DNA of 40,966 nt from Candidatus Zixiibacteriota bacterium (GCA_020058315.1 JAGVEK010000002.1:1-40966); one strand, 5' to 3'; counted from the stretch's first letter, positions 7,873 to 40,966 are shown. Program-made: numbers and translations. The notes: generated by a model not told the origin, from the sequence alone.

Positions 7873-7938
7873 GTGGTGCCAGCCAACTCTGCCGCCGAAC
7901 TGGCGGCCCACACCCCCGTAATGCAGCAGTATGTTTGA
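7873..7938 (+). pseudogene. mutS: Orphaned native 5' end of mutS (start region plus ~14-20 codons, truncated by island insertion)
   Basis: The frame reads (V)VPANSAAELAAHTPVMQQ, then YV-stop inside island DNA. HTPVMQQ duplicates the conserved MutS N-terminal motif that continues properly at 40540. Possible starts are GTG 7852, TTG 7867 and GTG 7873/7876. Confidence 0.7.
7909..7928. repeat. attL core (direct repeat CACACCCCCGTAATGCAGCA)
   Basis: An identical 20-mer occurs at 40540-40559. The flanks diverge immediately on both sides. Confidence 0.8.
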
Positions 7939-7989
7939 CTGACTTAAAAAGCCACGCCACCACAGGGTTTCCAGCAATGCATGCTGTCA

Positions 7990-8011
7990 CTGGGCTACCC
8001 ATGGGCTACCT
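7990..8011 (+). repeat. Tandem pair of GGGCTACC motifs (putative integrase arm-type sites, left arm)
   Basis: CTGGGCTACCC ATGGGCTACCT. The same tandem pair occurs at 40402-40423, and inverted copies at 40299-40309 and 40362-40372. Confidence 0.55.
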
Positions 8012-8119
8012 CGCAACGGCGTCAAATGATTATATGAGGGTGAATCCGGACCATCCGACCACCTTCACATTTTGTGGGCGGTCGAATCCGATCCATACCT
8101 GCTTGGGAACTCCGGTTTG

Positions 8120-8860
8120 TCAAACGAAGTGTAGTAGCAGCCGGCCGATTGAGTTCGTCAGGTCTCTGGCAAACACGGCCAGCCATTTCTGAGAGTCATC
8201 GGCAAAGTGTGATTCGCTGAACCCATTGCGGGAGTTGGCAACTGCATTTGTCAGCGTCGGAATTGAGTTTACTATCTGCTCGGGAAACTCGCCTCGGGCT
8301 CTCAGCTTTTCGGTGATGTCATCTTTGACCACCTTGCAAAGCTGCATAAGGTCGCTTAGGCCGATACTCTGAGGCACATGCCGCCGCACATAGGTCTTGT
8401 ACAGGCCTTCGAGGCACGTGTAGGCGAGCGTGACAGCACGATTGAACTGCTGGGCATCAATCGCATGATCAATGTCCTTGAGGCTGTTATTCAGCTTTTC
8501 GGAGTTCCAAAGGTCCACCGGCACCACGGCAGCAGGGACCGCTTGCCCTCCGCCAAACACGACGGCTCGAATTTCTTCAACCTCATCCTTGGCATACGGT
8601 TCAAGCGCATCAATCAACAGTCTGAAAAGCTGGTATTTGTGCTGCTCGGGAAGCTCCTTGACGATTTCCCAGTAGAACGATTTACGGGAGGTGCTCTTTC
8701 CCTGCTGGTTCAATATTGGGATGAGCTGTTCGTAGCTTGGAATTCCAGGGTCCACCTGCTGTGCCATGCGAAGGAAGTTTGGACCACTGTGATAGGTTGG
8801 ACCTTCCCTGTTCAACAGAATGAACAGACGGTTGTAGGCTGCTATCCAGTTGACTGACAT
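8120..8860 (-). CDS. Abi_C/HEPN-like protein (gene 4 of the four-gene cassette)
   Basis: 246 aa. The C-terminal half has the pattern ...LEGLYKTYVRRH...IPTLTNAVANSRNGFSESHF..., i.e. an R-x6-H motif in a helical context as in Abi_C/HEPN domains (recognised by eye). Its ATG directly abuts the TAA of the upstream gene (8860/8861). Confidence 0.7.
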   Translation of the reverse strand: MSVNWIAAYNRLFILLNREGPTYHSGPNFLRMAQQVDPGIPSYEQLIPILNQQGKSTSRKSFYWEIVKELPEQHKYQLFRLLIDALEPYAKDEVEEIRAVVFGGGQAVPAAVVPVDLWNSEKLNNSLKDIDHAIDAQQFNRAVTLAYTCLEGLYKTYVRRHVPQSIGLSDLMQLCKVVKDDITEKLRARGEFPEQIVNSIPTLTNAVANSRNGFSESHFADDSQKWLAVFARDLTNSIGRLLLHFV

Positions 8861-9541
8861 TTACGCTAGGGGTGCAGGCAAACTGCTTCGCAATAAGGGC
8901 AATAGTTCGTTCAGGTGGTTGGCTGAAACTTTCATCGATCCGCTGCTTGTTAGGTGAATGGGGACGATTTGCGAGCCCATCATGACTTTTACTTGGACCA
9001 TTTCCAACACGAATTTCTTCTTCACTGAAATATGCTGCAATGCCTCTCTTACATCCCTCTCCCCCCTGAGAAGAATTTTTGCCCTGACACCGTCTTCAAG
9101 CTCGAGTCCGGAGACTTGAAGTGAATCAACAAGTATCTTCTGATCAATTCTCTGTTGGAACGCCTGCACCCAATCAAGCAGGTTGACTGAAACAGGAGTG
9201 ACAGTCAGGGAGAAGTTGCAAAGCTCAAGCAGCTTGCTAACGAATTCCTTGGTACTTCTTTGGGAATTGCGAAGCTCAATATTTGGGAATTCCGAAAACA
9301 AAGTGAAGTCGACGTCACGGTAAACAACCCTGTCAAACACTTCCTGGTTGCCAAAGGGATCAGTCGTAGTCTCTTGATAGGCCAGCTTCTCAATAAAACG
9401 AGCGTCGATAGCATTATCTCGAATGCGGTCAATTACGAAGCCGTCAAAGCTATTGGGAGCGAAAAGCTGAGTCTTCATTTTCGCTCCGAGAGTTCGAATG
9501 GACACGGGCCATTTGGCGCTCAACCAACGGACACGTTTCAT
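8861..9541 (-). CDS. Hypothetical protein (gene 3 of the cassette)
   Basis: 226-aa ORF. The start at 9541 forms an ATGA overlap with the stop of the upstream gene. The alternative Met at 9478 gives MKTQLF.... No recognisable motif. Confidence 0.7.
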   Translation of the reverse strand: MKRVRWLSAKWPVSIRTLGAKMKTQLFAPNSFDGFVIDRIRDNAIDARFIEKLAYQETTTDPFGNQEVFDRVVYRDVDFTLFSEFPNIELRNSQRSTKEFVSKLLELCNFSLTVTPVSVNLLDWVQAFQQRIDQKILVDSLQVSGLELEDGVRAKILLRGERDVREALQHISVKKKFVLEMVQVKVMMGSQIVPIHLTSSGSMKVSANHLNELLPLLRSSLPAPLA

Positions 9542-10677
9542 GGATCGATTTCTCCGGGTTGGTCAGCTTCGGGAATCTCCGGTACCAAGCCCTTACGAAT
9601 CTCCGCAATGGTAGCGTTCGCAGTCTGCTCAATGAGGGACAGGAGTTTCTCTTTAGCCTCAGCATCAATGGGCCTGAGAGTCTTGGTGTATTCACCTTCT
9701 GAAAAATTCAATGCTCCACGAACCGAGTATTTGAACCCCTTGCCATCCTCCGGCTCCTCGAATGCCGCCTCAAATTCGACTATCGGATACGGAATGGTCG
9801 TCTCCTTTGCTCGCCAGATAATTGAAGTTATGAAGAACCCCTTTTTGACAAGGCTTTGATATTCCTCCGAGGCCAGCAAAGTTTCACCCTTCAAGGCCAC
9901 ATTCCTTACAAGTGCCAGCGCCTCTTGTTTGGCTTGCTCCTTGTTCTGATCATCTTCGAGGTCCAATTCGTCCTCTTCGGGCTCCCTCTTGATGGGCTCC
10001 ACCTTCACGCTGGTGACATTGTCCAGTTTGAAGCCCTTAAGCTTGCTTATCAGCGACGTGAAGAATTCGGTCCTTGATGCGGCGCTCTTGAACTCGCCAA
10101 TTTCGATTGAATCGGTTGGTATATCGGTCTTCTTCTTGCCGTCCAGTTTGCCTTTTAATTTGGAAACAACCTCCTTTGCCTTGGCATTCGATGGCATGCG
10201 AATAACCGTCTTATCGCCATCAACATGGAACTCAATACCTGCCTCCTTGGGCGTACGTTGAACGAGTCTCGTCTTGCCGTAGTCAATTTCCGAGTATTTG
10301 ACGTTAACTACAAATTGATCGGTTCCCTTTGAGTGGGAAGTAATCGTTTCATCTGCAGGCGATTCGCTGGTGTACTCCTTAACCACCTCTTTTATTTCCT
10401 CAACCGTCAAGGCGGCATTCAGGGTAACTGACGTCAACTTCTCCGACCTGCCCGCGTGCTCGCGATGGTCAAGGATGATATTTAGGTCATGGTAGTCGTG
10501 CGGAAGCAGGGACAAATAATTTACGAGTGTCTCCCTACCATCCTTTGGCGAAAGAAATATTCCTCTATCTTTCGCAAGCTCGAGAACGACACCGGCGTGA
10601 ATTCTCTGCTTTGCAGACATAAGGACATCATAGATTTCCTTGTCGGTAGCGCAGTAAAGGAGATTGTTTTTAGACAT
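9538..10677 (-). CDS. Hypothetical protein with an acidic/lysine-rich central linker (gene 2 of the cassette)
   Basis: Within ORF 9538..10734, Met at 10677 (MSKNNLLYCATDKEIY...) overlaps the upstream stop by 8 nt. No recognisable catalytic motif. Confidence 0.75.
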   Translation of the reverse strand: MSKNNLLYCATDKEIYDVLMSAKQRIHAGVVLELAKDRGIFLSPKDGRETLVNYLSLLPHDYHDLNIILDHREHAGRSEKLTSVTLNAALTVEEIKEVVKEYTSESPADETITSHSKGTDQFVVNVKYSEIDYGKTRLVQRTPKEAGIEFHVDGDKTVIRMPSNAKAKEVVSKLKGKLDGKKKTDIPTDSIEIGEFKSAASRTEFFTSLISKLKGFKLDNVTSVKVEPIKREPEEDELDLEDDQNKEQAKQEALALVRNVALKGETLLASEEYQSLVKKGFFITSIIWRAKETTIPYPIVEFEAAFEEPEDGKGFKYSVRGALNFSEGEYTKTLRPIDAEAKEKLLSLIEQTANATIAEIRKGLVPEIPEADQPGEIDP

Positions 10678-11653
10678 TTTGCATGCCCAGTTCAAGCTCG
10701 GAAAATTTGGTACGAACGTCGTTGATCTGAGCAAACTTAATGGTATTCAGCCGATCACGAATTTCGGGGCCACCTTCATACTCGTCCACATACTGATCTT
10801 TGGCCTTTTCGAAAAACGCCGCAGCGTTTGGATGAGGGTCCAGCGTCTTGACATGGACATCGGTGTCACCCACCAGAACCTGGTAGTGCATCAGGTGGTC
10901 AATTAGATATAAAAACTCTTCAACCGATTCGCCACGCTTACGGTAGAAGATAACGAAGCCCTTGCGGTTTTGCTTCTTTGGGTCAGTGTATGAAAGAATA
11001 ATCCAAGGCGCGGTAAGCATTTCCAAGGTTCCCGCCTTGGCATGCTCAGGCTGAACATTCTTCCTTCTGACTAAATGCGGGTAGAAGAATTTGCAGTGTT
11101 CCCGGTCGGGAAGCTCGCCGGCACCACCTCGCATGTAAGCAATCTCATGATGAACATTGTTCAGCCAGAAGATATCCCGTGGCCCGAACACAACGATCTT
11201 TGACTTGCTTGGAATATCTAGCTTTTCGTTCTTCACCTGTCCAAGCAGGCCACCAAAGTCCTTGTCGTATTCACCATCGTGGTTGTAGACAAAGAGAAGA
11301 CCGCAAATTTCTGGTGATACATGGTCGTGGAGAAACTTTGCCCTAAATTCATCGCTTTTTTCGGCACAGCTTAAGCCGCGCGCGAGACTCTCAATTGCTG
11401 CCCGAATGGCACCAACGGATATTGACCCCTTGGCGTAGCTTTTGAGGTCGCAGTTCACGTAGGTTCTTGCCTGTGAGTACGGCTCTTCATAGTAAAAAAC
11501 AACATCCGAGGGATGTGTTTCCGCCTTGTGCACCTCCTTATTCTCGCAAGGCCAGTTCAGATTCGTTGGACCCATCTTTTGCCATAGGAACTCTGCGAAG
11601 AGTTCCTTTGACAGTTTCTCGGCCATCTTTGCAATATTGGTAGTTTCTGCCAT
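10670..11653 (-). CDS. Hypothetical protein, possible PD-(D/E)xK nuclease fold (gene 1 of the cassette)
   Basis: 327 aa with a GAGGGAAC RBS. ...ETHPSDVVFYYEEPYSQARTYVNCDLKSY... gives P-S-D, then 18 residues, then D-L-K, as in restriction-endonuclease-like cores. The assignment is by eye only. Confidence 0.75.
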   Translation of the reverse strand: MAETTNIAKMAEKLSKELFAEFLWQKMGPTNLNWPCENKEVHKAETHPSDVVFYYEEPYSQARTYVNCDLKSYAKGSISVGAIRAAIESLARGLSCAEKSDEFRAKFLHDHVSPEICGLLFVYNHDGEYDKDFGGLLGQVKNEKLDIPSKSKIVVFGPRDIFWLNNVHHEIAYMRGGAGELPDREHCKFFYPHLVRRKNVQPEHAKAGTLEMLTAPWIILSYTDPKKQNRKGFVIFYRKRGESVEEFLYLIDHLMHYQVLVGDTDVHVKTLDPHPNAAAFFEKAKDQYVDEYEGGPEIRDRLNTIKFAQINDVRTKFSELELGMQNV

Positions 11654-11991: not shown

Positions 11992-12852
11992 TCAGGCCTG
12001 CAATTTCCTTAGGACTTTTTCAGTCGACCGAAAAATTTGCTCAGCCTCCTCCGCGGCCTCCCTCGCCTCTTTCTCGTTCGCGGACCAGCGGGCCAGACTC
12101 TCCAAATATCCCGACAGGGACATCCACTCGAACGGCTCGTCAGTGGGGCCGCAAAGCAGGGCCTGGATGAAGTCGTAAGGACGGCGGTCGGCCGGTCGGC
12201 AGAAGAGCCACTCCTCGTCGGGGTCCGCGTTTAGAAGAAAGTCCTGGAGGCTGGCGAAGAGGCAGCGGTTCGTTTGGACGGCTACGCCCATGTCCGTCAG
12301 CGCCTTGATCCTTGCGTTCTCGGCCTTCATTGATTTTGGGCCTCGCTTGCGAGGCGCTGCGGATGATGCGCCGCCGAACATCCCGAACAAGGCGGCGAGC
12401 CCCGGCGGCTCCGCCATCACGGGAGCCTCCGACACCCCCTGTCGGGATTCCGTTGCTCCCTCATCTGCCACGCTTGAACTAGGGGGCTGGAATGCCGCCC
12501 TAGGGGGCTGGAATGCCGCCCGAGGTGCCTGGTGCGCCGGCCAAGGCTCCCCTATCCTCTTGCAGAACTCATCCCCCATGAGCAAGGCCAACGTCCGCTC
12601 CGCGGCCGAGAGGCCGTTTGAGTTGTGCCTCTTGGCATATTCAAGAAGGTCGGTCACGGCATAGACGACCTTGCCGCCGCGGCGCTGAAACGGAATTTTC
12701 GCCTTGCCGTCAGGTTCCCTGCGGCTTGTCAGCCGCTGGCTTTTGAGGGCCGACACGGAAAGGTGAACCATCATCCCAGCCTGCTGTGTGTTGACCGCGC
12801 AAAACGGCCCTTCCACGGCCGCCTTGGCCATGACGTCATCAAACACTGTCAT
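11992..12852 (-). CDS. HTH-containing island protein, paralog-like of the int-adjacent 209-aa protein
   Basis: 286 aa. The N-terminal MMVHLSVSALKSQRL...GKVVYAVTDLLEY resembles AlpA/excisionase-type HTH. Its C-terminal segment (CLFASLQDF...FEWMSL) parallels MCFSTLSDF...IVWMPM of ORF 38063..38692. Confidence 0.7.
   Translation of the reverse strand: MTVFDDVMAKAAVEGPFCAVNTQQAGMMVHLSVSALKSQRLTSRREPDGKAKIPFQRRGGKVVYAVTDLLEYAKRHNSNGLSAAERTLALLMGDEFCKRIGEPWPAHQAPRAAFQPPRAAFQPPSSSVADEGATESRQGVSEAPVMAEPPGLAALFGMFGGASSAAPRKRGPKSMKAENARIKALTDMGVAVQTNRCLFASLQDFLLNADPDEEWLFCRPADRRPYDFIQALLCGPTDEPFEWMSLSGYLESLARWSANEKEAREAAEEAEQIFRSTEKVLRKLQA
12479..12520. repeat. In-frame 21-bp tandem duplication inside CDS 11992..12852
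   Basis: CTAGGGGGCTGGAATGCCGCC occurs twice and perfectly (12479-12499, 12500-12520), followed by a degenerate third copy. It encodes PRAAFQP PRAAFQP. Confidence 0.9.
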
Positions 12853-12998: not shown

Positions 12999-14156
12999 AT
13001 GAGCAATGCAACCGCAGCAACCGCAAGAGAACTCGTTTTCGAGGTCACGGACCAAGGCGACATCACGTCCTTTATCCGCGGCAAGCCCGCAGCGACAAAC
13101 GCAAAGCCCGAAGCATGCGTGCCGCGTGAATTCCTCAACAGATTGTCGGCGGCGAATCCTGGCCTTTGGAAACTGGTCGACGATGTTCGTCGCCGGATGA
13201 TCGCCGAAAAGAAAGGGTGGCCTGAGTGGTGTTTCCTGCCGGATTGGGGATGGACGGCTGTCGCAATTGAGAACGAGACGATCAGGCACAAAGATTTTTC
13301 GCCGACGGGCACGGATTTCGTCGAACACATGTATCGGGCGAAAACCGAACAGACCTTTTTCGGAACATGGCGGCTGACCCAGGGGGCCTATCGCTTCGAT
13401 CCGACGCTTTACAAGGCCTTGCTCGAAACACCGCTGACGGGAAACATCCCTTCCGAGATTCTCACCCGCTTGCCGGAATGGGCCGTCTACATCGAGACAC
13501 CCGACATCAAGCATCCCTCGGGCATGCCGTTGGACGGATTCGGGGCGTGCCTGTGCCATGAGCCGACCCTGGGCGACTGGATCGAGTTCCACCTGTTCGT
13601 CGCCATGCCCGACGGCAGCCGCCAACGCGGGTCGCACAGCGTCGTGCTCAATGGCGGGACCATCGAGGAGTCAGGTAAATGGATTGACGGGGAAAACGCG
13701 CTTGTATCCGAATTTCTGGGCACCGCCAACCCCACGTCCCCCTTCGACGAGAAAGCCTGGACGCCATTTGTCGGAAAGCTGCTCTCACTGCTGTTGTGGC
13801 TTTGCAGCGAGGAGCCGGAAATCGGATCGGGCACGCCTCCGAAACTTCCGACGCCGGTGAGGACAAAGAAGGGTCAGCGGTTCTTCCCGGCCGCCCAACC
13901 CAAGGTTTGGGACGTCGGCGTCCGGATCGGGGCCGCCCTCAACGCCGCCGCCGCAATCGCCAAAGCCTCCGGCGACGAAGAGGACGAGGCCGACCCGCGT
14001 GCACGCCCTCGAGGACACATCAGGCGGGCTCACTGGCACACATACCGCACCGGCCCGGGGGGTTCCGTGCGAAAGCTCCGATGGATGTCACCCATCCTCG
14101 TGAACATGCGGACCTGCGACGACCTGCCGGCCGTGATCCATCCCGTAATAAACTAA
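12999..14156 (+). CDS. Hypothetical protein with a basic C-terminal HxRRAHWH motif
   Basis: 385 aa with an AAGGAG RBS. The C-terminus reads RPRGHIRRAHWHTYRTGPGGSVRKLRWMSPILVN. No family could be named from memory. Confidence 0.75.
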   Translation: MSNATAATARELVFEVTDQGDITSFIRGKPAATNAKPEACVPREFLNRLSAANPGLWKLVDDVRRRMIAEKKGWPEWCFLPDWGWTAVAIENETIRHKDFSPTGTDFVEHMYRAKTEQTFFGTWRLTQGAYRFDPTLYKALLETPLTGNIPSEILTRLPEWAVYIETPDIKHPSGMPLDGFGACLCHEPTLGDWIEFHLFVAMPDGSRQRGSHSVVLNGGTIEESGKWIDGENALVSEFLGTANPTSPFDEKAWTPFVGKLLSLLLWLCSEEPEIGSGTPPKLPTPVRTKKGQRFFPAAQPKVWDVGVRIGAALNAAAAIAKASGDEEDEADPRARPRGHIRRAHWHTYRTGPGGSVRKLRWMSPILVNMRTCDDLPAVIHPVIN

Positions 14157-14171: not shown

Positions 14172-14936
14172 ATGAGCAATTTTGTCGATTACGAAATTCA
14201 CATGGTCGGCACCGCCGACGCGTTGCGGGCAGCGGTCCAGGTCATTGCAACGACGGTTGCGAAACACGGCGATGGTGCTAAGCACGGAAACTGGAATTGG
14301 GGGGGAATTCCAACCATCGAGGACGGGTACTCCGATGCTGATTTCGGGTTCGTATCCTGTCGGATGCAGATTCAGGAAATTTGCAAGGGGCTGATCATTG
14401 TCTCAAAGGTATTTCCGGAAATGAAAATTTTCGTGAACGAACAATGCACCGACGGATGCGTTGAATCCCGTCTGAACTTGATCGCGAAGGGCAAGGAAAA
14501 AGGACTCCTCGAGTCTTGTAACACCCCGTTCTATCTGGAGGAATTCTTGGCGATTTTCGAATTGCGTCGCCGCAAGGACGCCGAATCGCTTGCTGGGATC
14601 ATCGGCGCGATGATCCGAACGTGCCATGCCGGAGACGACTACATGGCCCTAAGCCTCGACACCATGGCCAAGGAGGTGACGTCGGTCATCAAGAAAAACC
14701 CCGCCTTGGCGACCGATCCGCAGACCCTCGAACTTCTTCAAACGCTCTGTCCGATGCTGCAGAACCTTTGCGGACCCGATGAGGACGAATACGAAGGCAT
14801 GCGATTTAAATACGCGGAAGGGCTCGAGACCGCCTTTGAGGCCGCGGCTTTGTCACTGTCGACAAAGAAGGCCCTCAAGACCGCCGGCAAGGGGAAGGGC
14901 AGGAAATGCCGGCCAGTGTCGGAGGCCTCGGTATGA
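14172..14936 (+). CDS. Hypothetical protein
   Basis: 254 aa with an AAGGAG RBS, 15 nt after the upstream stop. Its stop overlaps the nuclease gene start (ATGA). Confidence 0.7.
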   Translation: MSNFVDYEIHMVGTADALRAAVQVIATTVAKHGDGAKHGNWNWGGIPTIEDGYSDADFGFVSCRMQIQEICKGLIIVSKVFPEMKIFVNEQCTDGCVESRLNLIAKGKEKGLLESCNTPFYLEEFLAIFELRRRKDAESLAGIIGAMIRTCHAGDDYMALSLDTMAKEVTSVIKKNPALATDPQTLELLQTLCPMLQNLCGPDEDEYEGMRFKYAEGLETAFEAAALSLSTKKALKTAGKGKGRKCRPVSEASV

Positions 14937-15421
14937 GCCGCTGGCTTTTGCTTTCCGCGGTTCTGGCCGCCACGATTCAACCGGCGTATTGCGGTACGCT
15001 TTCAGGCCGGGTCGTGGCGGTCTCCGACGGGGACACCCTCACCGTCCTCGATAGCGAAAACAGGCAACACAAAATCCGTGTCGCCGGCATCGACGCACCC
15101 GAGCGAAAGCAACCGTTCCGACAGCGTTCCAAAAGCGGGCTATCGGATTGCTCATTTGGGAAAACGGTGGAGATCGTCGGCGACAAACGGGACAAATATC
15201 GCCGGACCGTAGGCAAGGTGATCGCCGACAGCCGTGACTGCGGACTCGCTCAGGTCAATGCCGGCCTTGCTTGGCATTACAAGGCATATGAGCGGGAGCA
15301 GCCGAAGGCCGACCGTGAGGCCTATTCCCAAGCGGAGGATGCGGCCAGGAAGGCAGGGGTGGGCCTTTGGTCGGAGCCCTCCCCCGTCCCGCCATGGGAA
15401 TGGCGAAAGGGGCGGCGGTAA
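14933..15421 (+). CDS. Secreted staphylococcal-nuclease (SNase/thermonuclease)-like nuclease
   Basis: Within ORF 14906..15421, Met at 14933. It has a signal-peptide-like MSRWLLLSAVLAATIQPAYC. Then VVAVSDGDTLTV...IRVAGIDAPE...GKTV...DKYRRTVG...VNAGLAWHYKAY... matches SNase-fold motifs. The RP4 ParB nuclease belongs to this fold. Confidence 0.8.
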   Translation: MSRWLLLSAVLAATIQPAYCGTLSGRVVAVSDGDTLTVLDSENRQHKIRVAGIDAPERKQPFRQRSKSGLSDCSFGKTVEIVGDKRDKYRRTVGKVIADSRDCGLAQVNAGLAWHYKAYEREQPKADREAYSQAEDAARKAGVGLWSEPSPVPPWEWRKGRR

Positions 15422-19196: not shown

Positions 19197-19199
19197 TCT

Positions 19200-29929: not shown

Positions 29930-29985
29930 ACGCCCCCCTTATTGTTCTTGTTCTTTTTAGTAGTGCTGCATCGTTGGACGCGATC

Positions 29986-31131: not shown

Positions 31132-31140
31132 CTCGCCCCT

Positions 31141-31509: not shown

Positions 31510-31518
31510 CAACCCTCC

Positions 31519-32304: not shown

Positions 32305-32318
32305 TTTCGAACTCCCTT

Positions 32319-32828
32319 TCACTTTGATTTATCGGCTCCAAACACTTCATCACCCCATCCCGACCCGGAGTTCCCAAGCGGGAGGTAGTCTGTTTTTTCA
32401 CCGGTCGCGCCTTTATTCGGCTCGGATTTTCCAGATGGTGCCGCCCCCTCATGGGGGCGGCCGGCGGCGTTAGCCGCCGCAGTTTTTTCCTCAATTTCTG
32501 AGTTTTTCGGCCGAGCCGAAGGCGAGGCCGGCTGCGGTAGCCCTGCCAACGATTCGATTCTGATTTGCGGCTGGTTTTTCAGGCCCTCATCGAGCATCCT
32601 CTTGGCTTGCTCGACTTTTGCCGTGTCGATGCCTTGGGCTTTCTTCGCCCTTGAAAAAACCGTACAGGCCGAACCCGATGAAACGGGATGCCCCAACGCC
32701 TCCGAAAGCCTGTCGGCAATCCACGGCCATGAGCGACCCGTTTGCCGCAATGCCTCAATCTCGTTAACCAGCTTTGAAACAGCGACCGACAATCCCAGTC
32801 CGTCAAAGCCGCTCCTGATCACGAACAT
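32319..32828 (-). CDS. Hypothetical protein upstream of parA (possible DNA-binding/partition adaptor)
   Basis: The ATG at 32828 is preceded by GAGGAG. ~169 aa with an HTH-like [30 protein letters not shown] and a low-complexity C-terminus. Its stop overlaps the upstream end of the extended parA ORF (GTG at 32322, GTGA overlap); the preferred parA ATG is at 32304. Confidence 0.65.
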   Translation of the reverse strand: MFVIRSGFDGLGLSVAVSKLVNEIEALRQTGRSWPWIADRLSEALGHPVSSGSACTVFSRAKKAQGIDTAKVEQAKRMLDEGLKNQPQIRIESLAGLPQPASPSARPKNSEIEEKTAAANAAGRPHEGAAPSGKSEPNKGATGEKTDYLPLGNSGSGWGDEVFGADKSK

Positions 32829-32889
32829 GATCACCTCCTCTTGAAACGATCCCTATGTCATCTCACCGAGACGGTCCTCAGGCAACTTG

Positions 32890-33210
32890 CTGTTATGGAT
32901 TTCTGACAAATGGTCGTGATTTGTAATGCCGGGTCGTGAAAAATCCGACTCTGTCGTTGTTTGTTAGCGTTTGTTAGATAGCCGAATCAGCATGATCCAC
33001 ATTAAAAATGCAGGCTTCGGGCGGAAGCGGCGGAGCCGTCCAGGTCGACTTTCAGGGGACTGAACACGCATCCGACGACCTTCGGACATCGACGAGTCCC
33101 GATCAGCAGCATGTTGATTCCCGCGACTCCGTGTCCTACTTTGTGAGACCCAATCCGACAAAGTCGCGGCCTGTTGGCATCTGTTATGGATTGTTAGGGT
33201 TTGTTAGATG
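32890..33210. repeat. Cluster of short direct repeats in the parA / mob divergent intergenic region (candidate centromere/oriT-accessory sites)
   Basis: TTGTTAG occurs 4 times (32961, 32971, 33191, 33201), plus a CTGTTAT variant at 32890 and 33181. The longer units are GTTTGTTAGATAGCC (32969-32983) and GTTTGTTAGATGCC (33199-33212). CTGTTATGGATT occurs twice (32890, 33181). GGTCGTGA occurs twice (32912, 32932). Confidence 0.6.
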
Positions 33211-33563
33211 CCTCAAACCATCACGGCACAACCCACCCACGCGATATGACCCGCCACTTCGATGGGAACAGAGCTCAATAGCGCCAGCGAACCACCCCAT
33301 CAGGCACCTGCAGCACCTTGAAAACCGCCCCTCGGGACACTCCCTCGGGGGCAAAGCGGCGGCGTTAACACGCCGAACAGCATATAAAAAAACCACCCCC
33401 AAAAAGCAAGGGAAAAACCAAAGGCAGGATTTCGTTACACACCATCGCAGTAAACTGCCCTGCGGGCAAAGTCAAAACCATCAACAACGCCTCCGAAACG
33501 CAGGCAGGACAAGGGTCTGACGCCCCTTGAATTACAAATAATAAAAATGCCAGTCAAATGAAG

Positions 33564-33590
33564 GCAAACCCTTATCCCATGCGGGTTTGC
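33564..33590. other. Inverted repeat GCAAACCC-N11-GGGTTTGC upstream of the mob operon (oriT-type hairpin candidate)
   Basis: 8-bp perfect arms, ~100 nt upstream of the mobC-like start. Two TTGACT hexamers follow at 33635-33670. Confidence 0.4.
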
Positions 33591-33691
33591 TGGCGAAAAC
33601 ATTTACTTTTCATAATTCATTTCGGACGGACGGCCTTGACTCCAGCACTTTCCGGCGAGAGGCTTGACTGAACCGATAAGAAAAACAACAA

Positions 33692-34159
33692 GTGGAGACC
33701 GCCTTGGAGAGCGCAAAAAGACGCGGGCGACCGAGAAGCCATGGCCCGAGAGTCGTGACGATTCAGGTCCGTCTGACAGTGGAGGAGGATGCGCGGTTTG
33801 ATGCCGAAGCCGCTTCGCTGGGTGTCGACAAGGCCGAACTCGCCCGTCGCCGCATCTTCCAGAAGGACGAATCCGACGAAAACATACGAGTCGCACGCAT
33901 CCGCGCGGAAGAGATCGCCTCGCGTGTCGAAGCCGTTGAAAAGCTCCTTATCGACGCTGCCAGCCGCAGCACCAACACTCAAAAATTCGTTCAAGGCTCG
34001 TACCACGCGATCAAGGAATTGCAGAAGTCCGCCAAAGAACTTGACGGCAAACTCTCCGGCCTTGCCACCGCAAACGACATTGAAAAGCTCGGACCGCCCC
34101 TGGCCCAAATCGCCTCGGCATCGGAGAAAATTTCCAGGAATCTCGGAAATGGACGGTAG
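33692..34159 (+). CDS. MobC/TrwA-like relaxosome accessory protein (RHH N-terminus)
   Basis: GTG start. RGRPR...VVTIQVRLTVEEDARFDAEAASLGVDKAELARRRI is the typical RHH mobilisation-protein pattern. It lies directly upstream of the relaxase. Confidence 0.65.
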   Translation: METALESAKRRGRPRSHGPRVVTIQVRLTVEEDARFDAEAASLGVDKAELARRRIFQKDESDENIRVARIRAEEIASRVEAVEKLLIDAASRSTNTQKFVQGSYHAIKELQKSAKELDGKLSGLATANDIEKLGPPLAQIASASEKISRNLGNGR

Positions 34160-34162
34160 GAA

Positions 34163-37100
34163 ATGCTGTCCATATCCACCCTCCACTCGTTCGAGTATTA
34201 CGTCTCGGAAGGTCTGAAGGAGACTTTCAGCTATTACAGCGGACGGGGTGAGAACGGTGACGAACGGGAGCGGGATCCGGCCGGAAAGTGGGTAGGGAAA
34301 TACGCCGACCGGCTCGGGCTTCCGGCGCACGCGAAGATTGAGGATTTCGCCGCCCTCTATTTCGGTTTCGACCCGAACACCGGAAAGCCGCTAACCAAAA
34401 GCGCCGACCAGACTGGATGGCAACTTTTCAAAGTCAAACAACTGCTCGCCGATGAAAACTTAACAGGACCAAAACGGTTGCGGCTTGAACGAAGGGCGAG
34501 GAAACTCTCCGCGGAAATCGCCGGGCGGGACAAGAATAGCGCGTCATCCAAGAAGGGCAATGGCGCCAAAGGCGATGACGAGGAAGTAGCCAAGCCGCGG
34601 AAAAAGTCCGTTCATCGCCCAGGCGTCGACCTTACCTTCACCCCGCCGAAGGACTTCTCGCTTCTGTTGGCCGCCTCATCCCCGGCGGACCGGAAAAGGC
34701 TCCTGGCCATCTACCGTGAAGCGGTCGAGGAGACCCTTGAAAGCGTCGAGAGGGAGTTTGCCCAAACCCGCATTGTCATCAACAAGCCCGAGGCGGAAGG
34801 CGGAAAGGTTGTCGTCGCGGAAAAGACCAAGGGGCTCGCCATCCTGATGTTCGAGCACTTGGGCGCAAGGCCCGTCGGAGACAACGCTCCCGATCCCGAC
34901 GGACACTTTCATTGCCTTGTCATGTCCCCGGTCCTTTGCCAGGACGAGAAGACGCGAGCCCTCTTCTCCGACCGCATCAAAAGGAACATCAAGGCACTGG
35001 GCGCCGAGTCTCGGGCCAGATTGGCCTTGAAGCTCGCCGAACGCGAGGGCATCGAGGTCGTGCCCGACGAGCAAAAGCGGATCACCTCGTTTCGCCTGTC
35101 CGGCGTCGATGCCAAGGACCGCGTCTTTTTCTCCAAGCGCAGGGGACAGATCGAAGCCCTTATGGCGCAAAGCGGGGAGAAGGCCGGCCTTTCGACACTG
35201 AAAACCCGCGAGACCAAAGGCGACTGGGACCGCCAGGACCTGATCGACGATTGGAAGGGGACGATGGCCCAAAGGGGGATGAGCCGCGAGAGGATGCTCG
35301 CCCCGGATGCCAAGGCAAAGGGATGGACGGCCAGGACCGACGAGCAAATCGTCGCCGCCTTGCAGGACATGAAGGTCTACTTTTCAGTTCCGGAATTGCG
35401 GCAGTCCCTTTGGGAGGAGGCCCAGTTCATCCGACCGCCCGAGGGGCAAACGCTTTCGACATGGATTGACGGGCGCTTGAATGCCATCCTCAAGAATCCC
35501 GATCTCCTGCGAATCGAGCTGCCCGAGGACAGCATCGAGCAAAGGAGCGTTCGCGGCCAAAACGCGGACCACGAGCCGATCTTCACCACGAAGAGCCTCA
35601 TCCTCCGCGAAATCGCCTTGGACAAAGCCCTCGGCGTCCTTGGCGGGTCGAACAAACACGCCATCCCATGGGAGGTCGCCCTGACGCACGTCGAGGCCTT
35701 GGAAGTACGCAAAACGGCGGACTCAAAGGACAAGTGGAGCTATCGCGACGACCAGCGGGCGGCGATTGGCCAGGTTCTTTTCGGCGCCGACATCTGCTTT
35801 GTCCAAGCCTTCGCCGGAACGGGAAAAACGACCGCCGCCGCCGCGATGTTCGAGGTTTGGAAGAGCGAGGGGAAGAAGGTCTTCGGACTGGCCCCGTCCA
35901 ACAAGGCAACGGGCCAATTGGCGGATGACTGCGACCTGACCAAAAGCGAGGCAATGACGGTCGCAAAATTCCTCTACGACGTTGAGAAGGGAAAGCTCAA
36001 GGCCAAGGACATTGCCAACTCAATAATTTTCATCGACGAGGCCAGCATGGTCGGGTTCGACGATGCCGAGAAACTCATCGAACTTTCACTGGCGAACAAG
36101 TGCAAGATCGTTTTCCAGGGCGATTCCGAGCAGTTGCCATCGGTCCCCAAGGGCCGTTTCTTCGCCAACGCCGTTGAGCAACGGCTCGGAAGCGCCGCCG
36201 CAGAGCTAACCGTCATCACGAGGCAGCGTGAGCAGTGGGCCGCGGCAGCCACCGAAGCCGCCGCCAAGGGCCTCTTCGCCGAAGCCCTCGAAGCCTATGA
36301 CCAACGCGGCCTGATCAAGGCCGAAGGCAGTGACGAAAACCTGTATGACAGAATCGTTGAGGCCCACCTTGCCGACAAGAACGACTTCAAGGACAAGATC
36401 ATCGTCGCCTCGCGAAACTCGGATGTCGACGCGATCAACGCGCGGATCCGCCTTTCCCTTGTCAAACGAGGCAGGGTCGACACGGGACACGAACTTTTCT
36501 CCACCGTCGATGGCCGCGAGAAGCCGATGATGGTCGGGGCGAGGGACCGCATCGTCTTTTGCGCCAAGGCGGAAGGCGACGGGGCCACGGCCAACAACGG
36601 CGATCTGGCAACCGTCCTGTCCGTTGGCCGCCGCGACGACGACAGCCTTGACGTGAAGGTCAGGCTCGACCGTACCGGAACGGAGTTCTCGTTCAACACC
36701 GCCGAGTTCTCCGGCATCGATCACGCCTACGCGATTACCGTGCATAAATCACAAGGCGCAACTGTCAATTCTTGCAGGTATCTGTTCTCCGACTTTGTCT
36801 CTTCCGAGCTGGCTTACGTGGGCATGTCCCGCCATCGCGACAGCCTTGAAATCTTTGTGAGGGCCGACAGGAAGGACTCCATGGCCGGCATGATGGGCAA
36901 GAAGATCGAAAAATTCTCCGCACGGGATCTCGCCGACAACGCGACACTGGCGGAATTGAACCGCGAGGCCCAAGGGCTTTACGAAAAGGCGGTCGCAGGC
37001 AAGGCGCAATCGCTTGAAAAAATGCCCGCCATTGCGCAGGCGGCAGCATCCGCGCGCCAGTCCATTTCACCGACACGCCAACCGCCCGTCAGCCAACCCG

Positions 37101-38053
37101 CCGCCTCACTCGACGGCCTTGTCGCGACCATTGAGGAACTTTCGGATCACATGAGCCTTATCGCCCACGAGTTGGCCGAGGCAGAACACGCCCGCCAAAT
37201 GACGGCGGACGCCAAGCGCAGGGCGGCCGAAAACGAGAGCAAGGCCGCCGCCGCGAGGGCTGCCGAGGCAGCGGCGCAGGAGGCAGCGAGACGCAACGCG
37301 CAGGCAACAATCGAAGCAAGGCAAGCAAGACGCATCGAGGAGGTCGGGAAAGCCGTCGGAAGGCTTTCAGAGAAGGACCGCATCGACCTTGCCTGCCATC
37401 TTGCCGGCATACCCAACCCCAAAGCAGCAGGCATGTTCAACGAGACTGAGTTCAGGCGCGACATGAAGGAGGCCGCGCTATTCGGAGCCGTCGGCAAGGT
37501 CTACACGGCGGAGACCGACAGTCAGGGTGTCCCGAACGGCTTCCTGCGCGTTTACGAGACGACTTCGGCGAGGCTCCTAACAGCCGCCGCCGACTCCATG
37601 GCGCGGAACCTGAATCCCATCTTGGCATGGGGCCAAGAAAGGGACGCGGCACGCGCGGGAAACGTCGCAGATATTTCTGGTCTAAGACGCGAGATGGCCG
37701 ACGAGATGGTCAAACTCAAACTCAACAACCCACCGAAATCGAAGACCGACGCCATCGGCATGGCGATTCACATTCGCGACATCGACCCCGGCCCGGACGG
37801 TACCATCAGCATCAAGCCAAGGTATTTCAGCGCAAACTGGGTGGTCGCCTCCCACAAAGCCGGCTGGGTCGCCATACCAAGGGCGGAATTGGAGAAATTC
37901 GGAAAAAAAGCCGAGCATCTCATGAGGGGCGTATCCCTCCCGCTGGAACGCCTCCCTGGAGGAACAGGCGTCGCCGACCCATCATCCGGCCGAACGCTGG
38001 GGGCCGGCAACTCGCTCATTCCAACACTCACGCCCAAGGAAATCGAACGCTAA
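34163..38053 (+). CDS. MOBF-family relaxase-helicase (TrwC/TraI-like)
   Basis: The N-terminus MLSISTLHSFEYYVSE...SYYSG carries the Tyr pairs. VDLTFTPPKDFS is present. The histidine triad context is DPDGHFHCLVM. There is an AAA_30-type Walker A FAGTGKTT. The helicase C-terminus reads AYAITVHKSQGATV. Confidence 0.9.
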   Translation: MLSISTLHSFEYYVSEGLKETFSYYSGRGENGDERERDPAGKWVGKYADRLGLPAHAKIEDFAALYFGFDPNTGKPLTKSADQTGWQLFKVKQLLADENLTGPKRLRLERRARKLSAEIAGRDKNSASSKKGNGAKGDDEEVAKPRKKSVHRPGVDLTFTPPKDFSLLLAASSPADRKRLLAIYREAVEETLESVEREFAQTRIVINKPEAEGGKVVVAEKTKGLAILMFEHLGARPVGDNAPDPDGHFHCLVMSPVLCQDEKTRALFSDRIKRNIKALGAESRARLALKLAEREGIEVVPDEQKRITSFRLSGVDAKDRVFFSKRRGQIEALMAQSGEKAGLSTLKTRETKGDWDRQDLIDDWKGTMAQRGMSRERMLAPDAKAKGWTARTDEQIVAALQDMKVYFSVPELRQSLWEEAQFIRPPEGQTLSTWIDGRLNAILKNPDLLRIELPEDSIEQRSVRGQNADHEPIFTTKSLILREIALDKALGVLGGSNKHAIPWEVALTHVEALEVRKTADSKDKWSYRDDQRAAIGQVLFGADICFVQAFAGTGKTTAAAAMFEVWKSEGKKVFGLAPSNKATGQLADDCDLTKSEAMTVAKFLYDVEKGKLKAKDIANSIIFIDEASMVGFDDAEKLIELSLANKCKIVFQGDSEQLPSVPKGRFFANAVEQRLGSAAAELTVITRQREQWAAAATEAAAKGLFAEALEAYDQRGLIKAEGSDENLYDRIVEAHLADKNDFKDKIIVASRNSDVDAINARIRLSLVKRGRVDTGHELFSTVDGREKPMMVGARDRIVFCAKAEGDGATANNGDLATVLSVGRRDDDSLDVKVRLDRTGTEFSFNTAEFSGIDHAYAITVHKSQGATVNSCRYLFSDFVSSELAYVGMSRHRDSLEIFVRADRKDSMAGMMGKKIEKFSARDLADNATLAELNREAQGLYEKAVAGKAQSLEKMPAIAQAAASARQSISPTRQPPVSQPAASLDGLVATIEELSDHMSLIAHELAEAEHARQMTADAKRRAAENESKAAAARAAEAAAQEAARRNAQATIEARQARRIEEVGKAVGRLSEKDRIDLACHLAGIPNPKAAGMFNETEFRRDMKEAALFGAVGKVYTAETDSQGVPNGFLRVYETTSARLLTAAADSMARNLNPILAWGQERDAARAGNVADISGLRREMADEMVKLKLNNPPKSKTDAIGMAIHIRDIDPGPDGTISIKPRYFSANWVVASHKAGWVAIPRAELEKFGKKAEHLMRGVSLPLERLPGGTGVADPSSGRTLGAGNSLIPTLTPKEIER

Positions 38054-38062
38054 TGCCAAACC

Positions 38063-38692
38063 CTACGCATTGGCGGGCAGCACTCCGGCCAAAAGCTCCG
38101 ACTCATCCTGCGCCGACCTGGCCCGACCGGCCTCGGTTTCCAACGCGAGGAGATAGGCATCGTGAAACCGCCGCCGCGTTGCCACGTCGTCCCAAGGCAA
38201 GCCCATCGCCTCGATCATCGGCATCCAGACGATTTCGAGTCCGGCCAGACTCTTGGCATTGAAGTCCGACACTGACGAGGTGAGCGAATGGGAAACGAGG
38301 CCCCCATCCGGCTTGGCCCACATCGGCTGGGGCTCGGCGAAATCGGAGAGCGTCGAGAAGCACATCCCGCGACGCTTCGCGGCCTCCATGGTCGAAGATA
38401 TCCTCTTTGACTGGTGCCAATCACGAATGTCGCCCATGCGGTATGAAACCTTGGCGTTTCTCGCTCCGGAATCCCCTTGCGAATACTGCGGCCCTGACTT
38501 GTCCGCCCGCATTTTCGCAAGCGTTTGTTCCGAGACCCGCAGATAGATTGCGGCGAGCGGAGCGTCAAGAATCGCCTCGGGCGGCATCCGGGCGAGCATG
38601 TCCATAACCTGCAACTCATGCAGCGACGGAAGGCCTGGAATCGGGGCCGTCGGCAGCGTCTCGGGGATTTGTTCGGGAAGTGTCATGGGCAT
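38063..38692 (-). CDS. HTH protein downstream of int (candidate excisionase/recombination directionality factor or regulator)
   Basis: 209 aa. AAIYLRVSEQTLAKMRADKSGPQY...VSYRMGDIRDW is AlpA/Xis-like HTH. It lies 51 nt after the int stop on the same strand. Confidence 0.6.
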   Translation of the reverse strand: MPMTLPEQIPETLPTAPIPGLPSLHELQVMDMLARMPPEAILDAPLAAIYLRVSEQTLAKMRADKSGPQYSQGDSGARNAKVSYRMGDIRDWHQSKRISSTMEAAKRRGMCFSTLSDFAEPQPMWAKPDGGLVSHSLTSSVSDFNAKSLAGLEIVWMPMIEAMGLPWDDVATRRRFHDAYLLALETEAGRARSAQDESELLAGVLPANA

Positions 38693-38743
38693 GGCGCAAA
38701 AGGCCCAATGTTATACCCGACGCCAACCCGGAACCGGAAACGT

Positions 38744-40279
38744 TCAGCCCGCCGAGGCGGCGACATCCGCCTCGCCCTTGTCCTTGCGCGGCCTTCCCGT
38801 CCTTGGCTTCACGGGAGCAAGCTTGTGTGGCTCCGGGGCCTGCAACGGCGGCCAGTCAATGGGCTTCAAGGAGTTGTAAAGATTCGGGGCCGTGGTAAGC
38901 AACGAGTTCTCGATGCGCTGCATGGCAGCCTTCAACTGCAGCCATTCGGCTTCGGTGTAGCGGTCCGTCACGTCGGTTTGCCCGTGGTTGAGCAACTCTC
39001 CGACCATCTCCTTCGAAAGGCCCGCCGCATGGACGGCAGTTGTTCCGAAGGTACGCCGCAGGTCGTGGCGTGTGAGGGTCGGGATGTCCGCCTCGACCTT
39101 CAACCTTTTAAGCAGGTCCTGAGAGTCGCTGTAATGGCCGGTTTTCGAAAAGCGGCTCTTTGCCGGAAAGACGAAACGGCGCGACTTGCCAAAGCCCCGT
39201 CTTGCGGACTCCTCCGCCGCTTCCGTTTTCCGCCGCCTCAACAGCTCCAATGCACATTCGGGCAACGGCAGGCGATGGGCCAGCCCGTTTTTTGTCCTGT
39301 GGAAAAAGACCTCGCCTCTCTCCAAGTCGACCCATGAGTTCATCCATGGATTGACCGCATCGCTCGACGGCTTCTCACCCGCCGGAGCGAGAAGCTCACG
39401 CCACACAAGGCCGGCGTGCTCGGACTTGCGGCAGCCGAGAATCAGCATCAACAGGATGTAGTCGCAACCGGTACGGTTGTCGTTCACCGCCCTCTTCGAC
39501 CAAAGGGCCTCGAGGAACCTGCCCAGCCGCTCCCTGGTCAGCGGATTGCGAACGCCCCGCTCATCGCGATCCTTCGCCAACTCGGCCCGCGTGCGATAGA
39601 CCTTCAGATGAACGAGGGCGCGGAACGGATTCGCCAACATTGACGGAACCCTTCCTTGCGACTGGGCGGTGATCGCCTCCATGGTCAACACGTGCTCGAC
39701 CGACGTCGTCGCCCAGCGAAACGCCTGCTCGGTCGACGTCCTGGCCCTCTTCGCCAACTCGTCGAACTTCCCCTTGATCTCGTCGGCTCCAAGCGACTTG
39801 ATCCGGCGATCCTTCCAGCATGACAACTTTCGTTCCGAGCGCTCGAAATTGCTGATTGTGCTTTCTTGCGCGGGGGAACTGCGGGACTTCAGGTGCTCCT
39901 TGTATTTCTCCATCGCCTGCCCGACCGTGGCCTCCGCGAGTTGAAGCCTGCGCCTCTCGGTGTTCGGATTCGATCCGGTCTCACGCATCATGACCGAAAG
40001 GCCCGCCGCCTTGTCGCGAGCGTCCTGCACCTTCACGAACTCGGCGACCTCGCCGATCTTCGATTTCATCACCCGGCCGGCGACCTTCTTTTGCATCACG
40101 TAGGTCTTCTTCGACGCCGAAACTTTCACTCCGAAACCGGTTAGCTTCGTGTCAAATACGATATACGGCGTCCTGTCGGTATTTTCCTCGAAGACGATTT
40201 CACCGCCCAGGAGTTCGACGGGCCGCTTTTCGATGCAAAGCCGGTTAAGGATGACGTCTTTGGTAAGTTCAATTTTCAT
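38744..40279 (-). CDS. int: Tyrosine recombinase / phage-type integrase
   Basis: Within ORF 38744..40297 (TTG), ATG at 40279 (MKIELTKDV...). The C-terminal catalytic region reads ...LILGCRKSEHAGLVW...LAHRLPL...TRHDLRRTFGT...ELLNH...VTDRYT. It sits at the island edge next to attR. Confidence 0.9.
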   Translation of the reverse strand: MKIELTKDVILNRLCIEKRPVELLGGEIVFEENTDRTPYIVFDTKLTGFGVKVSASKKTYVMQKKVAGRVMKSKIGEVAEFVKVQDARDKAAGLSVMMRETGSNPNTERRRLQLAEATVGQAMEKYKEHLKSRSSPAQESTISNFERSERKLSCWKDRRIKSLGADEIKGKFDELAKRARTSTEQAFRWATTSVEHVLTMEAITAQSQGRVPSMLANPFRALVHLKVYRTRAELAKDRDERGVRNPLTRERLGRFLEALWSKRAVNDNRTGCDYILLMLILGCRKSEHAGLVWRELLAPAGEKPSSDAVNPWMNSWVDLERGEVFFHRTKNGLAHRLPLPECALELLRRRKTEAAEESARRGFGKSRRFVFPAKSRFSKTGHYSDSQDLLKRLKVEADIPTLTRHDLRRTFGTTAVHAAGLSKEMVGELLNHGQTDVTDRYTEAEWLQLKAAMQRIENSLLTTAPNLYNSLKPIDWPPLQAPEPHKLAPVKPRTGRPRKDKGEADVAASAG

Positions 40280-40298
40280 CAGATTCCCCGCCTGCAAA

Positions 40299-40423
40299 AG
40301 GTAGCCCAGCGATAACGCCGAATCCGTTGCAGGACAAGGGATTCAGACTTGGAACAAAGAAAGGTAGCCCAGTGGCCGATTATAGCATCCAAACTTTGAC
40401 GCTGGGCTACCTATGGGCTACCT
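40299..40423. repeat. Four GGGCTACC motifs (two inverted, two tandem direct): putative integrase arm-type sites, right arm
   Basis: AGGTAGCCCAG at 40299-40309 and 40362-40372. CTGGGCTACCT at 40402-40412 and ATGGGCTACCT at 40413-40423. Confidence 0.55.
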
Positions 40424-40473
40424 CAGGCGTGATATCAAGTGGATTTATACGGGTTTAAACGAGATCAAAACAG

Positions 40474-40507
40474 TGGACAGAATCGGATAACTCATTGATA
40501 ATCAATG
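40474..40507 (+). promoter_or_regulatory. Outward-facing sigma70-like promoter (TGGACA-N17-GATAAT) overlapped by the 15-bp palindrome CATTGATAATCAATG
   Basis: -35 at 40474-40479, -10 at 40497-40502, palindrome at 40493-40507. It lies just upstream of the candidate hybrid mutS starts (TTG 40495, GTG 40519). Confidence 0.4.
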
Positions 40508-40518
40508 CGCAAACACAG

Positions 40519-40966
40519 GTGGCGGAAGGCATCGAAAAGCACACCCCCGTAATGCAGCAATGGCTGCGCGCCAAGGCAGAGCATGCGGACAAGCTGCTGT
40601 TTTTCCGCATGGGGGATTTCTACGAGCTGTTTTACGAAGATGCCCAGCAAGCCGCTCGCCTGCTCGACATCACGCTGACCGCGCGCGGCCAGTCGGCCGG
40701 CAAGCCGATTGCGATGGCCGGCATTCCCTACCACGCGGTCGACGGCTATCTGGCTAAGCTGGTCAAGCTCGGCGTCTCGGTGGCCATCTGCGAGCAGATC
40801 GGCGACCCTGCGCTGGCAAAGGGCCCCGTCGAGCGCGCAGTGACGCGCATCGTCACGCCGGGCACGCTGACTGATGCCAATCTCCTCGACGATCGCAACG
40901 ACAGCCTGCTGCTGGCGCTGACCATCGACCGCCAGCGCGCGGGGCTGGCCTGGCTCAACCTCGCCA
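40519..40966 (+). CDS. mutS: DNA mismatch repair protein MutS, 5' part with island-supplied start (runs off window end)
   Basis: The frame reads (V)[56 protein letters not shown]...IPYHAV...ICEQIGDP..., the canonical MutS domain I. The start is uncertain (GTG 40519, TTG 40495 or ATG 40552). It is not in the ORF track because there is no stop in the window. Confidence 0.85.
40540..40559. repeat. attR core (direct repeat CACACCCCCGTAATGCAGCA)
   Basis: Identical to 7909-7928. It lies in frame within mutS codons HTPVMQQ. Confidence 0.8.

Follow-up and report, generated by a model that had tools for sequence, protein, structure and literature searches.

An integrase-bearing element within the first codons of mutS and the in-frame 5' end it supplies

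What becomes of a mismatch-repair gene when a mobile element settles inside its first codons? The question is raised by a stretch of 40,966 nucleotides deposited under the name Candidatus Zixiibacteriota bacterium (GCA_020058315.1, JAGVEK010000002.1:1-40966; this whole stretch is called the window below), in which an integrase-bearing element separates the start of mutS from the rest of the gene. Our answer, to which we give a probability of roughly 85%, is that an integrative mobilizable element (IME) has inserted into the mutS start and supplies an in-frame replacement 5' end, that the host would keep a working MutS, and that excision would leave no scar.

The element is bounded by two copies of a 20-mer, CACACCCCCGTAATGCAGCA, which encodes the residues HTPVMQQ of MutS. 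The features at its two junctions are the following.

7909-7928, plus strand: attL core, left copy of the exact 20-bp repeat, present as a single copy in the island-free relatives L007 and L008.
40540-40559, plus strand: attR core, right copy of the exact repeat.
7873-7938, plus strand: orphaned native mutS start, reading GTG (7873)-VVPANSAAELAAHTPVMQQ-YV-stop (TGA at 7936-7938), the YV-stop being element DNA.
40540-40966, plus strand: host mutS from the HTPVMQQ motif on (domain I), continuing past the window end, with 93.7% nucleotide identity to mutS of L007.

Exactly these two copies occur in the window, 32,631 bp apart from repeat to repeat, and no other is found across its whole length with up to two mismatches allowed; none is expected in 100 shuffles. 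The identity ends at the edges of the core, where C at 7908 faces G at 40539 and G at 7929 faces A at 40560. On the left, the orphaned start begins 2 nt past the stop codon of vapC; on the right, the reading frame at the attR copy leads into MutS domain I and is still open where the window stops. The left flank has a guanine-plus-cytosine (GC) fraction of about 0.60-0.62, which drops to 0.47-0.52 at 8-12 kb; the rest of the element ranges over about 0.48-0.65. ARAGORN detected no tRNA or tmRNA gene in the window and Rfam gave no match in it, so that the junctions lack the tRNA or tmRNA gene that marks islands targeting such genes.

A repeat of this kind could in principle be coincidental, and the comparison with relatives bears on that directly. 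As a query we used the reconstructed native MutS N-terminus, in which the attL stub is joined to the attR continuation. The closest MutS proteins share 94-99% identity with it over domain I (89% for P0124), and the nearest named matches belong to Rhodocyclaceae. In these close relatives (P0121-P0124), the N-termini resemble the attL stub (VVPANSAAELAAHTPVMQQ, ...ELAAHTPVMQQ) and not the leader found at attR. One metagenome contig of 249,928 bp (L007) carries, in order, a trmJ-like methylase gene, suhB, vapB, vapC and an unbroken mutS, with whose ATG start the attL stub aligns codon for codon. In a second relative (L008), mutS directly follows suhB without vapBC. Each has one copy of the 20-mer core, and the 32,631 bp that separate the repeats in the window are missing from both. 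Window positions 6181-7928 align with L007 8329-10077 at 86.3% identity, positions 40539-40966 align with L007 10057-10484 at 93.7%, and the two alignments overlap at the core (L007 10057-10077). Shuffle statistics and the empty sites together rule out a chance repeat. Since relatives have the site unoccupied and the stub agrees with the N-termini of their MutS, we consider it confirmed that a site-specific integrase-bearing element sits within the first mutS codons as a true insertion.

An earlier sequence-only reading of the window had described much of this, and its account of the locus stands: the direct repeat coding for HTPVMQQ proved to be two exact copies with none expected by chance, the orphaned start left of attL matches the MutS N-termini of island-free relatives, the passage of the right copy into authentic MutS domain I follows from translation, the lack of a tRNA or tmRNA at the junctions agrees with ARAGORN and Rfam (no hits in either), and the integrase it named has both Phage_integrase and Arm-DNA-bind_3 domains in the open reading frame (ORF) at 38744-40297. 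The check it had suggested, an island-free relative with an unbroken vapBC-mutS junction and a single 20-mer, is answered by L007.

The interval between suhB and mutS is itself variable. A vapBC-like pair, made of a ParD-like antitoxin and a PIN toxin, occupies 7173-7870 of the window and the corresponding 9322-10019 of L007, and is absent in L008. Since only 2 nt separate the vapC stop from the native mutS start in both the window and L007, native mutS would probably be co-transcribed with the vapBC toxin-antitoxin operon in this lineage.

At the other end, the element carries its recombination functions beside mutS, and short repeats recur near both of its borders.

38744-40297, minus strand: tyrosine integrase of the mutS-targeting family (Pfam Phage_integrase, 1.7e-12, with Arm-DNA-bind_3).
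38063-38692, minus strand: conserved 209-aa gene directly 3' of int, a putative excisionase or regulator (HTH_17-like; 34% identity, E 5e-26, to the Burkholderia glumae gene in the same position).
7985-8012, plus strand: arm-type repeat pair of the left end, GGGCTACC twice in direct orientation, probable arm-binding sites of the integrase.
40300-40422, no strand assigned: arm-type repeats in the int-mutS divergent region, with GGTAGCCC at 40300 and 40363 (inverted) and GGGCTACC at 40404 and 40415 (direct).

The integrase is transcribed divergently from mutS. It would measure 517 aa from the TTG at 40297 or 511 aa from the ATG at 40279; the shorter form is likelier, since the closest homologue (94% identity) is 511 aa long. 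The 209-aa gene has counterparts of 193-209 aa in the same position at L003-L006 and L011-L014, and the B. glumae homologue gives a weak match to HTH_17, the fold of AlpA/Xis-type excisionases. The GGGCTACC motif occurs seven times against 0.46 expected, and six of the seven copies lie no more than about 250 bp from an end of the element. Two of these are direct copies inside attL; between int and attR there are two inverted and two direct ones. Across elements whose integrases are 81-94% identical, these repeats stay invariant while the surrounding DNA diverges, which is the pattern expected of arm-type sites bound by an integrase. A prophage origin was considered and rejected: even the best-matching integrases of phages do not exceed 25% identity, and we saw no structural genes of phages.

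Is the tie between this integrase and mutS particular to the window? Among the candidates scored, 274 homologues of the integrase were found with E<=1e-20, the named ones coming from Burkholderia, Paraburkholderia, Massilia, Hydrogenophaga and Albidiferax. We read the genomic context in Duganella, Polaromonas, B. glumae, Hydrogenophaga (three contigs), five metagenome contigs (integrases 59-94% identical to that of the window) and Escherichia coli E24377A. All homologues with a readable context adjoin mutS divergently, at a distance of about 230-340 bp from the motif, and in each the leader is open and in frame. For the islands of Duganella, Polaromonas and B. glumae the comparison covered the near flanks, their far ends lying beyond the compared sequence. 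Two metagenome contigs, with integrases 94% (L011; bases 1-30) and 81% (L013; bases 1-10) identical to that of the window, stop at the core or shortly past it, as could happen if assemblies forked at the att site in a population mixing integrated, empty or differently hosted forms.

Elements of this kind are already known. Chu et al. 2017 (mBio 8:e02045-16; PMC5296598) described a 27-kb element in Vibrio splendidus 12B01 that sits in a conserved motif at the start of mutS, gives the gene a new promoter and translation start and leaves the host start orphaned upstream. Hundreds of Beta- and Gammaproteobacteria turned out, in their survey with the integrase as query, to have putative elements inside the HTPMMQQ motif of mutS, 4 to >150 kb in size (PMC5296598); Table S2 of that paper includes Azoarcus sp. 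BH72, Methyloversatilis, Massilia, B. glumae and B. thailandensis, as well as an E. coli E24377A element of 12,690 bp (CP000800.1:3020284). Literature after that paper on the HTPMMQQ site came down, in our search, to papers citing it. The E24377A integrase (486 aa, divergent from mutS) is 41% identical to that of the window over the full length (E 4e-119), which supplies the homologous mutS-adjacent integrase expected of the class. The spacing of the motif-coding repeats is 12,690 bp in E24377A and 14,816 bp in E. coli 536, in both cases the published length, and these two listed elements share with the window the insertion in the HTPMMQQ codons between flanking repeats. The host-derived mutS start orphaned in the window matches that of relatives, as in the published class.

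The window element is therefore a member of the element class published in 2017. It agrees with its predecessors in the target codons, the flanking repeats, the orphaned start, the divergent homologous tyrosine integrase and the candidate in-frame start with its leader in element DNA; its size lies inside the range of 4 to >150 kb, and its host is betaproteobacterial by MutS matches. It differs in belonging to an uncultured relative of Rhodocyclaceae (by the nearest named MutS) that is unlisted there, in a perfect 20-bp core for which clean excision is predicted whereas 12B01 leaves a 2-bp scar, in a native mutS start that abuts a vapBC pair, and in its content: a TrfA-like replication initiator with iterons, a MOBF relaxase, a type I Zorya system and an Hp1-3 cluster. 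The precedent proposed by the sequence-only reading, elements in the mutS-mutL region of streptococci, thus gives way to a closer one with a homologous integrase, in the very HTPMMQQ motif (PMC5296598).

The interior, mapped with Pfam, PADLOC, NCBIfam and tblastn, contains candidate modules for mobilization, replication and partition.

34163-38053, plus strand: MOBF-type relaxase-helicase of 1296 aa (Pfam TrwC 7.3e-50, AAA_30 5.7e-41).
24556-25743, plus strand: TrfA-like plasmid replication initiator (weak Pfam TrfA and RPA matches).
26652-26757, plus strand: putative oriV, a 22-bp iteron array of 4.8 copies (period 22, 91% matches, consensus CCCGTAGTAGAGCGCACCAAAG).
31519-32322, minus strand: ParA/MinD-like ATPase, a putative partition protein (Pfam CbiA 8.3e-05, below the gathering score; a weak assignment).

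By tblastn, the TrfA-like protein is about 29% identical to annotated trfA on 186 plasmids (best E 4e-21). The iteron array lies downstream of rep, related copies occur upstream of it as pairs at 24061-24104 and 24349-24392, and a short array of period 10 follows the iterons at 26802-26844 (4.4 copies, consensus unit TAAGGCTTT). Together, the iterons and the TrfA-like protein look like a plasmid-type oriV within an integrated element. A megablast search of PLSDB gave no plasmid match to the backbone (24000-40560). In Pfam scans neither VirB4 nor a coupling protein nor any further type IV secretion domain came up, a negative that covers the larger ORFs, several ORFs being without a family match. 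An integrase and a relaxase are thus present without a mating-pair formation apparatus of the element's own among these matches, and oriT was not located. Judged by these gene assignments, the element is best described as an IME with a plasmid-like maintenance module and defence cargo.

We propose the following course of events. The tyrosine integrase would recombine a 20-bp core that coincides with the HTPVMQQ codons of mutS. Integration would have split the gene after codon 19, leaving the native start at attL, with whichever promoter serves vapBC-mutS, as a dead-end ORF of 21 codons, and fusing the body of mutS at attR to element DNA that provides a new start, a short non-conserved leader and presumably a promoter, the latter within the 245-bp region shared with the divergent integrase gene. 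As long as the element stays integrated, MutS would be under the control that it supplies. Excision by the integrase, presumably with the adjacent HTH_17-like protein, would rejoin the native start in frame. The excised circle could then replicate (TrfA-like protein and iterons), be partitioned (ParA-like protein) and be mobilized through its TrwC relaxase by a helper conjugation system.

How mutS would be expressed from this arrangement depends on one further feature.

40495-40539, plus strand: element-supplied mutS 5' end, with an in-frame TTG at 40495 (longer leader) or GTG at 40519 (leader VAEGIEK).

At attR the mutS frame is open back to 40456. The TTG at 40495 is kept in the three closest elements, with a conserved GGATAA 7 nt upstream, and the GTG at 40519 is shared with the 94% relative, L011, alone. 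In relatives, the native leader consists of 12 variable residues, so its replacement should be tolerated. A sigma-70-like site, TGGACA-17-GATAAT at 40474-40502, matches 10 of 12 consensus positions.

Several points, besides the scope of the secretion-domain search, weigh against the proposed reading. That site is the sole formal promoter match, it overlaps the TTG candidate, and it is absent in the 81% relatives L012 and L013. A strong Shine-Dalgarno sequence precedes neither candidate start, and the integrity of mutS can be read over 142 codons, up to the window end. The 209-aa protein itself has no Pfam match in the window, its HTH_17 assignment coming from the weak match of a homologue, and the ParA and TrfA assignments are both weak. 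The sole integrase-like neighbour of mutS in E. coli 536 (L010, NC_008253 2848976-2849725) is annotated as a 249-aa DUF4102 protein, without a catalytic domain and without significant BLASTP or profile similarity to the window integrase; the published set is thus not uniform at the mutS-adjacent position. Finally, excision, a circular form and transfer are for this particular element predictions from its sequence.

As a located promoter, the site at 40474-40502 was set aside for want of conservation; we infer that a promoter lies in the region, in a place that this match does not fix. The promoter prediction being weak and neither start having a convincing ribosome-binding site, one could suppose that the true start and promoter were simply lost, that the apparent replacement goes unused and that the host is a mismatch-repair-deficient mutator. 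We hold this to be extremely improbable. All ten of the ten related loci with a readable junction keep an open in-frame start in element-derived DNA, which would not be preserved by chance. The attR-side mutS differs from its relatives by 25-26 synonymous and 2 non-synonymous changes across 142 codons, which points to continued, strong purifying selection on the gene in this lineage. In V. splendidus, 12B01 strains that retain the element are not hypermutators, from which Chu et al. concluded that the promoter and start provided by that element work (PMC5296598). Most likely, then, mutS would still be functional and expressed from the start and leader that the element supplies. This also qualifies one claim of the sequence-only reading, namely that the element parts mutS from its promoter, ribosome-binding site and start: the native start is indeed orphaned, but a replacement start and leader are provided, as in every related locus examined.

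A different doubt concerns mobility. The window could hold the fixed remnant of a past integration, now an immobile island kept for its defence cargo. Such decay has a parallel in Hydrogenophaga (L004), where transposase fragments come after only three genes, int, the HTH_17-like one and a further ORF, and where neither a repeat nor a second core copy was found, a decayed or truncated example; E. coli 536 keeps only its 249-aa stub beside mutS, and excision was not seen in Enterovibrio FF-162 (PMC5296598). The state of the window element argues the other way: both cores are perfect, the arm-type repeats are intact at both ends, and the integrase, its neighbour gene, the relaxase and rep are all full-length ORFs. 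Moreover, an integrase 94% identical and the same leader recur in another sample, on the contig that ends just after the core. A fixed remnant is therefore unlikely in our estimate, and an element that may still be mobile is preferred.

For such an element, the identical cores predict that excision would restore native mutS in frame and without a scar. The predicted attB reads ...GAACTGGCGGCC-core-ATGGCTGCGC..., an in-frame native mutS, and the predicted attP ...GGCATCGAAAAG-CACACCCCCGTAATGCAGCA-GTATGTTTGACTGAC.... By joining 40540-40559 to 7929-7938, this attP would form a short mutS-like start followed by a stop, with the common MQQY form where the host has MQQW; it looks like a fossil of the mutS 5' end of an earlier host.

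Could integration and excision then serve as a mutation-rate switch? In this scheme MutS levels would differ between the integrated state, with the promoter of the element and a new leader, and the excised state, with the native promoter linked to vapBC, and stochastic or stress-driven excision would yield subpopulations with altered mutation and recombination rates. Chu et al. propose it for the class, with a mutator outcome in V. splendidus 12B01 (PMC5296598), where excision occurs in about 1 in 10,000 genomes and leaves a 2-bp frameshift that makes hypermutators (PMC5296598). In the window, too, the expression signals of mutS are fully exchanged, the native start abutting the vapC stop and the replacement lying in the int-mutS divergent region, which also contains the arm-type repeats, and a change of mutS expression upon integration or excision is plausible. 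Yet the 12B01 mutator came from the scar, whereas the identical cores of the window predict clean in-frame excision. Among the four strains in which excision was detected by polymerase chain reaction (V. splendidus 12B01, E. coli 536, Pseudomonas putida F1 and B. multivorans CF2), it was clean in the latter three (PMC5296598), and a conserved gene start may be merely a safe, well-conserved landing site. We therefore regard a mutation-rate switch as possible but doubtful.

A more intimate link can be imagined from the 245-bp int-mutS region, where four conserved arm-type repeats lie just upstream of the replacement mutS start. Occupancy of these repeats by the integrase might set the MutS level and so couple mismatch repair to element activity, which we consider very unlikely. 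If true, the barrier that limits recombination with incoming diverged DNA would depend on how active a mobilizable element with defence cargo is, and the mutS start would be more to that element than a safe place to insert.

The other mapped genes of the element include its defence cargo.

15453-23887, minus strand: Zorya type I operon (ZorA 21659-23887, ZorB 20909-21652, ZorC 19200-20912, ZorD 15453-19196).
8861-11653, minus strand: three-gene low-GC candidate-defence cluster (PADLOC Hp3, Hp2 and Hp1, E 2e-16, 3.4e-44 and 2.4e-63).
14906-15421, plus strand: staphylococcal-nuclease-like protein (Pfam SNase 1.6e-20).
11992-12852 (minus), 12999-14156 (plus) and 14172-14936 (plus): three ORFs without a family match in Pfam, NCBIfam or PADLOC.

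With all of zorABCD in four contiguous co-directional genes, the Zorya type I operon is complete. PADLOC recognizes ZorA1 (4.2e-241), ZorC1 (5e-179) and ZorD1 (E=0), and Pfam finds OmpA and MotB_plug in ZorB, EH_Signature in ZorC, and SNF2 and Mrr_cat in ZorD. The Hp1-3 cluster (GC 0.47-0.52) has weak similarity to GapS4a, well below the cut-off, and the ORF that adjoins it (8120-8860) gave no match.

Related elements hold genes of a comparable kind. The mutS element of E24377A (L016, NC_009801 3020717-3032808) carries the antiviral reverse transcriptases drt3a and drt3b (DRT3), ABC-three-component-system proteins and a nuclease-related protein; the B. glumae element (L003) has a SIR2-like gene along with a reverse transcriptase to which a trypsin-like domain is fused. 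Elements that target mutS may commonly carry defence cargo.

Outside the element, the left flank (84-7049) is ordinary core chromosome, syntenic with L007 at about 83-86% nucleotide identity.

84-7049: left-flank genes, coding for two class-V aminotransferases (IscS/NifS-like), a serine-acetyltransferase-like hexapeptide protein, a SpoU-family methylase and the inositol monophosphatase SuhB.

Several other mobile elements invite comparison. The SpyCI phage-like islands of Streptococcus pyogenes integrate in mutL and block its expression (PMC3430984). They share with the window a mobile island whose integration and excision affect a mismatch-repair gene, but SpyCI is a Gram-positive, phage-like island, while the window element interrupts mutS and, instead of a block to expression, brings a replacement start. 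Its target is codons 13-19 of mutS, and no phage-type genes were found in it. The sequence-only reading had already noted that the architecture differs from that of the streptococcal islands, and rightly so.

The dusA-specific integrases use one conserved site at the 5' end of dusA, and their islands, which vary in cargo, occur in hundreds of proteobacterial genomes (Farrugia et al. 2015, PMC4482086). In both cases an integrase family is tied to one conserved site at the 5' end of a protein-coding gene; there the target is dusA, which has no known DNA-repair link, and the likeness drawn here is one of description.

Elements of the SXT/R391 family reportedly integrate in the 5' end of prfC, providing a new promoter and N-terminal codons so that the gene stays functional, and SXT can transfer itself by means of a complete type IV secretion system. 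With these the window element has in common a tyrosine integrase acting at the 5' coding end of a conserved housekeeping gene whose function is kept; the target gene is another, the window element has a relaxase only, and the comparison is drawn by architecture. IMEs of the SGI1 type with a replication module resemble the window element in combining an integrase, a putative excisionase, a relaxase and a replication initiator, without a conjugation apparatus and with a protein-coding target; SGI1 differs in target (3' end of trmE) and in its antibiotic-resistance cargo, and the resemblance drawn here is one of module content.

The idea that these elements exchange the control region of a mismatch-repair gene dates from a 2017 publication, and the window opens no new question in this respect; the physiological meaning of the swap has so far been examined in V. 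splendidus only (PMC5296598). What the window adds is a fully delimited mutS-targeting element in a Rhodocyclaceae-like host lineage, with both att sites, empty-site controls and a full map of its modules. Elements of this class can thus be plasmid-like, with a TrfA-like rep, iterons, a putative partition gene and a relaxase, and can carry anti-phage systems.

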